Assembly (NCBI GenBank): GCA_964492125.1
Contig: CAZBJE010000001.1
Span: forward strand, 4,018 to 68,017
Source: an uncultured Pseudobdellovibrionaceae bacterium
GTDB lineage: Bacteria > Bdellovibrionota > FAC87 > UBA2466
Reading direction: 5' to 3'
Length of the DNA: 64,000 nt
Positions 48,819 to 49,465 of this stretch are shown one piece after another. Made by a program: the position numbers and the translations under genes. The notes below the pieces were generated by a model. It had not been told where the DNA came from, ran no database searches, and saw nothing but the letters and a program-made list of their open reading frames with translations. Position 1 is the stretch's first letter; each line of letters begins with the position of its first letter.

Positions 48819-49042
48819 AAGACTAGTGTATCGCGTATTCCCATTGTAATCACAGGGGTTTTCGGGTGCCCTTTTTCGTCACCGTGGCTAGCAAAACAAT
48901 GTCGAATTGTTTCCAGCAATAACTGCCTCAATCACTCCCAAGCCTAGTTCCCGACGCCGGGCCAGTGGCATAGGAGTTGCGATATGTCCTGACGAGGTTG
49001 CCCTCGCGTTGCGAGTGGCGAGATGAATTGATGGAGAGAGTG

Positions 49043-49465
49043 ATGAAGATGTTAAGCGCGTTCGTTGTTTTGTTCGCCGCGGTGGCGGGAATTGATGCAC
49101 AGGCTTGTACCCGTTGCGCCCCGGCGCCACGTCCGATGCCGATGCCTATCGTGCAGGTCTTCCCGGTTCCTGTGCCGCGCCCAGTGCCGGTTCCGGTTCC
49201 CGTGCCGGTCCCTGTGCCGCGTCCAGTTCCGGTTCCTGTGGCGGTTCCGATCGCACAGCCGATGCCATCTCCTTGCGGCGGCGGCGGATGCGGCGGCGGT
49301 AACTTCAACATTGGCACCCACGGAGTCGCTGTTGGCGGATTCGCGATGCCCGGTGTGTATCGGTGCCGACCGCTAGACCGTTGCTCCCGACGGGCTTTCC
49401 GAGCCGCACGCCGCGCGATTCGTCGCCAGGCGCGTTGCTTCGGTCGCTGCGCCCGCACCTGCTAA
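49043..49465 (+). CDS. small secreted Pro-Val dipeptide-repeat, Cys-containing, Arg-rich C-terminal protein
   Basis: Signal peptide [16 protein letters not shown]; (PV)n/RPVPVPV repeats across about 40 residues; Gly-Cys cluster CGGGGCGGG; cationic tail [24 protein letters not shown]; alternative ATG at 49031. Confidence 0.45.
49140..49262 (+). repeat. imperfect tandem CCGGTTCC(N)GTGCCG-type repeats encoding PVPV
   Basis: Read directly; degenerate 6-12-nt periodicity within the PV-repeat ORF. Confidence 0.5.

Follow-up and report, generated by a model that had tools for sequence, protein, structure and literature searches.

Does a short open reading frame (ORF) rich in guanine and cytosine (GC), in which proline codons alternate with valine codons, encode a protein at all, and if so, what could this protein do? 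The question is raised by positions 49043–49465 on the forward strand of the window, the 64,000-nucleotide stretch of contig CAZBJE010000001.1 (assembly GCA_964492125.1) that was analyzed here. An earlier note, made from the letters of the sequence, had described there a small secreted protein with Pro-Val dipeptide repeats, a Gly-Cys cluster, and a strongly cationic tail. Judged by comparison with its orthologues, the ORF genuinely codes for a protein in a Bdellovibrio-like bacterium (one of the Pseudobdellovibrionaceae as NCBI defines them), and the reading that we favor for its product is a role at the cell envelope.

Evidence for a Protein-Coding Gene

Relatives of the locus were collected by means of its divergent LdcB/VanY neighbor. 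A scan with this gene yielded locus L001, on a contig of an uncultured Pseudobdellovibrionaceae bacterium, and a protein search followed by contig look-ups yielded loci L083–L092 and L094; a metagenome scan with the LdcB/VanY alignment returned 80 loci of at most 52% identity, none of which had an equivalent small gene. An open frame alone means little in this part of the window, because other frames are long as well: frame -2 is open over 139 codons, and frames +2 and -1 over 106 codons each. However, +1 is the sole frame that is open in all 10 loci, with 9 complete orthologues in Bdellovibrio-like contigs keeping it. The ratio of non-synonymous to synonymous substitution rates (dN/dS) is 0.14 over the N-terminal 33 codons (window versus L083) and 0.08 over the C-terminal module (L083 versus L001). 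Within this module, when a gene of 47% GC is compared with genes of 62–64% GC, the segment PIRRxLGLPGFTPVRQFLFGRG.IRR shows 88–92% identity in protein and 67% in DNA. In tblastn on the window, the L083 product gave E = 5e-46, the L084 product 2e-37, and protein P0126 1e-23. The earlier note had named the condition under which its proposal would fall, namely that the ORF is an artefact of a GC-rich repeat lacking any conserved homologue; the orthologues, the single open frame, and the dN/dS values rule this out. The GC content of 0.65–0.69 over the ORF, compared with approximately 0.55 around it, is what codons for Pro, Gly, Arg, and Ala would produce.

According to the sequence and the ORF list of 48700–49800, positions 49043–49465 (+) encode a protein of 140 amino acids plus stop, and dN/dS and tblastn support its reading as a coding sequence. 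The start at 49031 given by the earlier note probably lies 12 nucleotides too far upstream: the conserved start is the ATG at 49043, the MERV extension that the upstream start would add is absent from most orthologues, and a start of the type MK... with a GGAG-like motif shortly ahead of it (GAGAG in L087) is kept in all of them. In the window, the Shine-Dalgarno motif GGAG was read at 49033–49036 (+), 6 nucleotides ahead of this ATG. The other elements of the earlier description, i.e., a frame of about 140 codons ending at 49465, the signal peptide, the Pro-Val repeat, the Gly-Cys cluster, and the polycationic Cys-containing tail, are all present.

The predicted Sec signal peptide (49043–49105, +), as read from the sequence, consists of MK, a hydrophobic core, and a signal peptidase I site of the AXA type (AQA/C). 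The AXA motif is kept in most family members where it is readable (AQA, ASA, AFA, AGA/N, AEA, AYA/R), and residues 3–16 form a signal-peptide helix in the AlphaFold model of the window protein. Cleavage after AQA would leave a mature protein of approximately 119 amino acids with an isoelectric point (pI) of 11.6, a net charge of about +16, and 9 Cys. Its N-terminus would be the Cys pair CTRC (49106–49117, +), which aligns with the other members, followed by a Pro-rich spacer of about 50 residues (residues 26–77; 49118–49273, +) with 14 P-[VMI] dipeptides. The pairs of this spacer are P-V and P-M, and it contains only 4 Arg. According to sequence and alignment, the next region (49274–49360, +) comprises the Gly/Cys cluster CGGGGCGGG (49274–49300), the motif GTHG (49313–49324), and a Gly/hydrophobic stretch; the latter two elements correspond to residues 90–100. 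The polycationic Arg/Cys C-terminal tail (49361–49462, +) was delimited by its alignment to the family module, its hydrophobic moment, and the AlphaFold model.

A Rare Family of Small Exported Proteins

A first word-indexed search with the whole protein, which scores only the 8000 candidates that share most words with the query, gave no match among these 8000, probably because PVPVP words swamped the index. After deletion of the repeats, a search with eight members (alignment A2) recovered 7 database proteins, and a full-length profile (A3) retrieved 16 matches at E <= 1e-3 from 1.84 billion representative proteins; 12 of these 16 were judged to be family members. The matched proteins are named "hypothetical protein" at most, and each forms a singleton cluster. 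We define the family as P0121–P0133, P0136, and P0138 together with the products of L083, L084, L087, and L090. Pfam gave no match to the window protein at E <= 0.1, nor to any of 14 family members at E <= 1. The only returns from Pfam, NCBIfam, PDB profiles, and Rfam were compositional matches to linkers rich in Pro from TonB and SslE, which scored far under the cut-off, and a literature search for the motif PVPVPVPV found no paper. In sequence terms, these proteins make up a rare, unnamed family of small exported proteins of 99–174 amino acids in Bdellovibrionales.

The members are built alike (alignment A5): behind an AXA signal peptide come a Cys pair and a low-complexity spacer, in most members also a [GST]HG motif, and finally a C-terminal module. 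Nearly all members have the Cys pair after the cleavage site, as C-x2-C, C-x3-C, C-x4-C, or C-x5-C. The [GST]HG motif is found in the window protein, in 7 of 8 further members of the Pro-Val clade (P0127 has PNHG instead), and in some distant members. The C-terminal module, RPAxYGPxGRYPKLGFRAPIRRxLGLPGFTPVRQFLFGRGAIRRQxRRAFLFGR, often ends in Cys, is rich in Arg and aromatic residues, and is almost free of acidic ones. The net charge ranges from +12 to +17 with 0–2 acidic residues in the ten members tabulated, and the pI from 11.4 to 12 in the three members computed. The number of Cys varies from 4 to 9 across members. The window protein itself has the AXA signal peptide with the Cys pair, the [GST]HG motif, significant similarity to other members, the same genomic position, and a sigma-54 promoter-like site ahead of its gene.

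Any function assigned to the family would be novel, as it has no name, domain, structure, or literature. Its members occur only in a few lineages of Bdellovibrio-like bacteria, about whose envelope and way of attacking prey little is understood. The family also illustrates a pitfall: low-complexity genes of this kind escape both homology searches that rely on a word index and gene callers. A low-complexity antisense ORF (GIGIGIG.../TGAGAT...) was called instead of the family gene in L090 (2324–2983, +) and L089 (2–256, +).

The Pro-Val repeat of the window protein can be placed within this design. The degenerate nucleotide tandem repeats that the earlier note had reported in this region were recovered by Tandem Repeats Finder at 49163–49249, with periods of 6, 12, and 30 and 64–81% matches. 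Comparison of members shows that the repeat is the family spacer in a form expanded in one clade. Spacer length ranges from about 5 to about 100 residues, and the number of P-X dipeptides is 0 in L093 and L094, 2 in L001 (which has Gly-Val repeats instead), 6 in L085, 7 in L091, 11 in L090, 14 in the window and L084, 19 in L083, and 20 in L087, where P-V, P-T, and P-M runs occur. A spacer of 5–100 residues between two conserved ends provides a natural series for studying the effect of spacer length in an envelope protein.

Putative Sigma-54 Promoter and Candidate Regulator

Approximately 77 nucleotides upstream of the start codon lies a sigma-54 (-24/-12) promoter-like site, TGGCATAGGAGTTGCG (48966–48981, +), recognized by its match to the consensus. 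The segment TGGCATAGGAGTTGC at 48966–48980 matches TGGCAC-N5-TTGC, the -24/-12 consensus of sigma-54 promoters, and is the sole TGGCAY-N5-TTGC match on either strand of the window. Each family locus except L090 and L094 likewise contains one exact match, which precedes the family gene (or what is left of it) on the same strand and starts 64–85 nucleotides before the start codon; the positions are 5884–5898 in L001, 2838–2852 in L083, 2852–2866 in L084, 3011–3025 in L085, 2936–2950 in L087, 2691–2705 in L091, and 5912–5926 in L093. L090 (TTGA) and L094 (TCGC) have a single mismatch in the -12 element. The N5 bases vary between loci and the GG/GC elements are kept. Even the unlinked L093 has TGGCATCCATCTTGC upstream of its family gene, and in L092 the promoter-like site is kept ahead of a deleted remnant. 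This conservation suggests that the small gene is probably under sigma-54 control, and the site offers a direct experimental handle on its expression.

A candidate regulator is encoded three genes from the small gene. This NtrC-type activator of 453 amino acids (44952–46313, -) combines receiver, Sigma54_activat, and HTH_8 domains. Synteny of its gene is kept in six loci (L087, L089, L090, L091, L092, and L094), and no sensor kinase gene adjoins it.

The intergenic region contains further conserved elements. The block GTCACCGTGGCTAGCAAAACAATGTCGA (48879–48907, no strand assigned) is kept in the window, L083, and L084, and related blocks of the form TGTCACCGCTGT..AACAA occur in L085, L087, and L091. 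A second strongly conserved block, at 48823–48855, lies in the region shared with the divergent LdcB/VanY gene. Both blocks could represent an activator binding site or, alternatively, the promoter or leader of LdcB/VanY. In the 5' leader (48982–49030), short GC-rich hairpins were seen by eye, among them CTCGC-GTT-GCGAG (window) and GCCGCAC...GTGCGGC (L091 and L001); automatic consensus folding of the leaders of L001, L083–L091, and the window gave no shared structure.

The C-Terminal Tail and Structure Prediction

The window protein keeps only a shortened form of the C-terminal module, consisting of YRCRPLDR... and the Arg-rich end, in which AIRRQ.R..FGR aligns with the family module; about 20–25 residues that include GLPGFTPVRQF are missing. 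As the full module is present in the closest relatives, L083 and P0126, the window copy is, on the alignment, a divergent member with a remodelled tail. A stretch in frame +1 relative to the gene, at 49363–49400, bears a faint likeness to the family motif LGLPGFTPIRQ. That the tail was remodelled by compensated frameshifts is a weak conjecture, and tblastn gave no support for a compensated frameshift there.

The tail of the window protein could form a strongly amphipathic, Arg-rich helix. Its helical hydrophobic moment over 18 residues is 1.01, a value that was reached by none of 2000 shuffled sequences, and the mean hydrophobicity of this most amphipathic 18-residue segment is -0.83. AlphaFold predicted no fold for the window protein (8 sequences; overall predicted local distance difference test score, pLDDT, of 59) or for the minimal member P0129 (12 sequences; pLDDT 54). 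In the model of the window protein, the Pro-rich stretch has neither helix nor strand, with pLDDT means of 10-residue blocks falling from 85 to 60, and a low-confidence helix appears in the tail at residues 115–135.

Possible Function

Our preferred interpretation is that the product is not an enzyme but has a structural or spacer role, is associated with the envelope, and is expressed only under certain conditions. To this package as a whole we assign a confidence of about 0.5, most of which rests on its descriptive part. In this model, the gene would be silent until the ATPase of a sigma-54 activator switches it on. The product would then be exported by Sec and cleaved after AQA, and would remain largely disordered, with the Pro-Val stretch as an extended rod resembling a polyproline-II helix. 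Its Cys residues would form disulfides in the periplasm, and the polycationic tail, in the window copy as an amphipathic Arg-rich helix, would hold the protein on an anionic surface of the envelope, i.e., phospholipid, lipopolysaccharide (LPS), or peptidoglycan.

Several points weigh against this interpretation. Homology lends no support to envelope binding or to any other function, and we infer this binding, like signal-peptide cleavage, disulfide formation, and dependence on sigma-54, from features of the sequence. The strongly amphipathic helix is confined to the window copy, as L083 and P0129 were not significant in the same shuffle test. Moreover, the window copy is missing about half of the most conserved module and therefore may not act as the rest of the family does. 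The gene also appears to be dispensable in some lineages, because L092 carries only a deleted remnant. Finally, linkage to cell wall genes (LdcB in the main clade; murE, murF, and mraY near L093) carries little weight among loci of such phylogenetic depth.

The closest analogue by description within the same bacterial family is the hit locus protein Bd0108 of Bdellovibrio bacteriovorus, a small, secreted, disordered protein of 101 amino acids that ends at Q101, has two Cys and a CXXC motif, and adjoins the RHS-repeat protein Bd0109 (PMC4267844). Small size (~100–140 amino acids), signal peptide, predicted disorder, and CXXC are common to both. The window protein differs in having 9 Cys, a polycationic tail, and a Pro-Val repeat; among the 16 neighboring genes scanned against Pfam, there are neither RHS nor pilus genes.

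Among structural elements of the envelope, the (EP)n(KP)n linker of TonB and OmpA-type hinges resemble the window protein in having an alternating Pro-X run, an expected polyproline-II rod, and an exported or envelope-bound carrier, but the repeat of the window protein is neutral P-V and not charged E-P/K-P. TonB itself was rejected: the C-terminal domain, an uncleaved anchor, and an OmpA domain are absent, and the NCBIfam scores of 14.8–15.6 bits (cut-off 315) concern the Pro-rich linker only. A lipoprotein was rejected by a rule-based reading, as the lipobox [LVI][ASTVI][GAS]C is absent from the window protein (D-A-Q-A-C, with A at -3 and Q at -2); Cys stands at +2 in L085 (AGA/NC) and follows AYA/R in P0138. 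C-terminal sorting signals of the PEP-CTERM, MYXO-CTERM, and GlyGly-CTERM types were dismissed as well, since the tail has no hydrophobic helix and matched no NCBIfam sorting model.

A different use of the same cationic tail is conceivable, although we consider it unlikely: the product could be a membrane-active peptide directed at prey or competitors, whose Arg-rich, disulfide-braced tail would permeabilize the outer or inner membrane of the prey and whose Pro-rich rod would act as a spacer. The organism from which the DNA probably comes is a member of a predatory group, expression would be conditional through sigma-54, and the pI, net charge, and 9 Cys of the window copy fit such an activity, as does the exceptional hydrophobic moment of its tail. 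However, the relatives lack the amphipathic helix, and a Sec signal alone leads only to the periplasm. The neighbors of the gene are of a housekeeping kind and include neither a dedicated exporter nor an immunity gene or a secretion system of the outer membrane. The searches of Pfam, NCBIfam, and PDB profiles gave no likeness to antimicrobial peptide families or bacteriocin models, nor any sequence, domain, or structural link to the proline-rich cationic peptides or surface-anchoring proteins that the earlier note had brought up for comparison. Bac5/Bac7, PR-39, apidaecin, and defensin-like peptides are eukaryotic, mostly shorter, and contain PRP/RPP motifs, and the Pro-rich ones among them are free of Cys. 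The window protein resembles them in its richness in Pro, its strong positive charge, the Cys of its cationic part, and the amphipathic Arg helix of its tail, but its Pro is paired with Val or Met and not arranged in PRP/RP motifs, its charge is located elsewhere than in the Pro-rich part, and the searches detected no homology. A proline-rich antimicrobial peptide in the proper sense was rejected on account of the 119-residue mature length, the 9 Cys, and the P-V/P-M pairs of the window protein.

It is likewise unlikely that the protein binds metal (Zn, Cu, or Ni) or, as a thiol-redox protein, senses redox state in the periplasm under sigma-54/NtrC-type control. ZraP of E. coli, which has Gly/Cys/His-rich ends and depends on sigma-54 and ZraR, would be the model for such a system. 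Resemblance to ZraP extends to the small size, export, Gly/Cys/His-rich low-complexity sequence, sigma-54 promoter-like site, and NtrC-type activator nearby. Potential ligands are provided in many members by the Cys pair and the [GST]HG motif (CSSCHGG, CSHGCGGG, CGSHGGC, and CGGGGCGGG...GTHG in the window) and by PMPMPM runs in L087 and L090. The window protein is, however, opposite in character to ZraP in its charge, the activator is not adjacent, and no cognate kinase gene stands beside it. Neither the LTXXQ-type nor a CpxP-like domain was detected by Pfam in the window protein and 14 members, so that membership in ZraP/CpxP/Spy was rejected; no other metal-binding domain was matched. Furthermore, conservation within the family is highest in the Arg/aromatic module, which is devoid of metal ligands, the number and positions of Cys vary widely, and the neighborhood contains no metal transporter or resistance genes.

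More speculative still is the idea that the family represents a hitherto unrecognized class of sigma-54-switched, Sec-exported, polycationic, disordered proteins that predatory Bdellovibrio-like bacteria deploy against the envelopes of their prey; we treat it as a long shot. The Pro-Val rod could then be a spacer of tunable length, and the Arg/aromatic module or Arg helix a warhead that binds membranes or LPS. Such anti-prey proteins, if they exist, would be a bacterial counterpart of the cationic peptides of host defense. If the protein is instead a minor envelope component, it will be of local interest only. It stands some way from described families, and nothing points to a new mechanism.

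The earlier note had also suggested that repeat number could vary by slippage. The first half of this proposal holds in the sense that repeat number changes over evolutionary time: relatives differ in their dipeptide count (0–20 P-X), and short in-frame indels in the spacer separate close relatives (P0123 versus P0124, P0125 versus P0128). The same differences between species and between close relatives would be expected of a contingency surface protein whose Pro-Val number changes by replication slippage within populations, but this is very improbable. Slippage at the strain level is doubtful because the DNA repeat is imperfect, with four codons used for Pro and three for Val, a longest perfect tandem run of 13–14 nucleotides, and the match percentages given above; no long perfect tandem DNA repeat of the kind that marks simple-sequence contingency loci was found. 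Copies from different samples are of the same length, L085 and L086 being identical in sequence and L087 and L088 both being called at 161 amino acids, and all indels are in frame, which leaves no room for on/off switching.

The least tenable alternative, that the ORF is non-coding and open merely by chance in GC-rich repeat DNA, can point to the long competing frames, the empty first search, and the antisense strand picked by gene callers in L089 and L090, but is refuted as far as sequence evidence reaches by the single frame open in 10 of 10 loci, the low dN/dS values, the promoter-like site, Shine-Dalgarno motif, and downstream hairpin kept in sense orientation, and a protein motif kept across 47–64% GC, while the swamped word index probably explains the empty search.

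Gene Neighborhood

In the window, the gene is surrounded by genes for LdcB/VanY, an M24 peptidase, an AIRS-like protein, GATase, HD-GYP, Mla proteins, RecG, and CarAB. The small gene adjoins LdcB/VanY at the same position in all of L001, L083–L092, and L094, and the common gene order is HD-GYP, GATase, an outer membrane protein-like (OMP-like) gene, the family gene, LdcB/VanY, and M24. The family gene lies between the OMP-like gene and LdcB/VanY in L001, L083, L084, L090, L091, and L094; in L085 and L087 it adjoins LdcB/VanY as well, with the OMP-like gene replaced in the former and absent from the latter. The distant L093 occupies another neighborhood, close to murE, murF, and mraY. In L092 only a remnant was found (2690–2917, -), in which the promoter is followed directly by mid-gene sequence (..QGNHGGF..RQMGCSGFGC..). 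It is without start codon, signal peptide, and Pro-rich part, its C-terminal end is altered, and it is probably a deletion pseudogene.

Between the small gene and its convergent neighbor, a GC-rich hairpin, CCGACCC-CGC-GGGTCGG (49481–49497, no strand assigned), was read from the sequence as a possible terminator. L084 retains this hairpin and L083 a part of it; in L001 and L087, different hairpins lie 3' of the gene. For want of a T-run, the hairpin of the window was not called by the terminator scan. The convergent neighbor itself (49506–50003, -) encodes a conserved protein of approximately 165 amino acids with a signal peptide, Gly-rich segments resembling beta-strands, and the C-terminal end ...FYPQVGVAMRI. 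It had no Pfam or NCBIfam match, and by these features it may be a small outer-membrane beta-barrel. The mechanically predicted ORF at 49506–50441 is over-extended and overlaps the GATase gene. On the other side of the small gene, 26 nucleotides (48108–48133) are shared by LdcB/VanY and the M24-peptidase-like gene downstream of it, and similar overlaps in most syntenic loci suggest that the two genes are translationally coupled.

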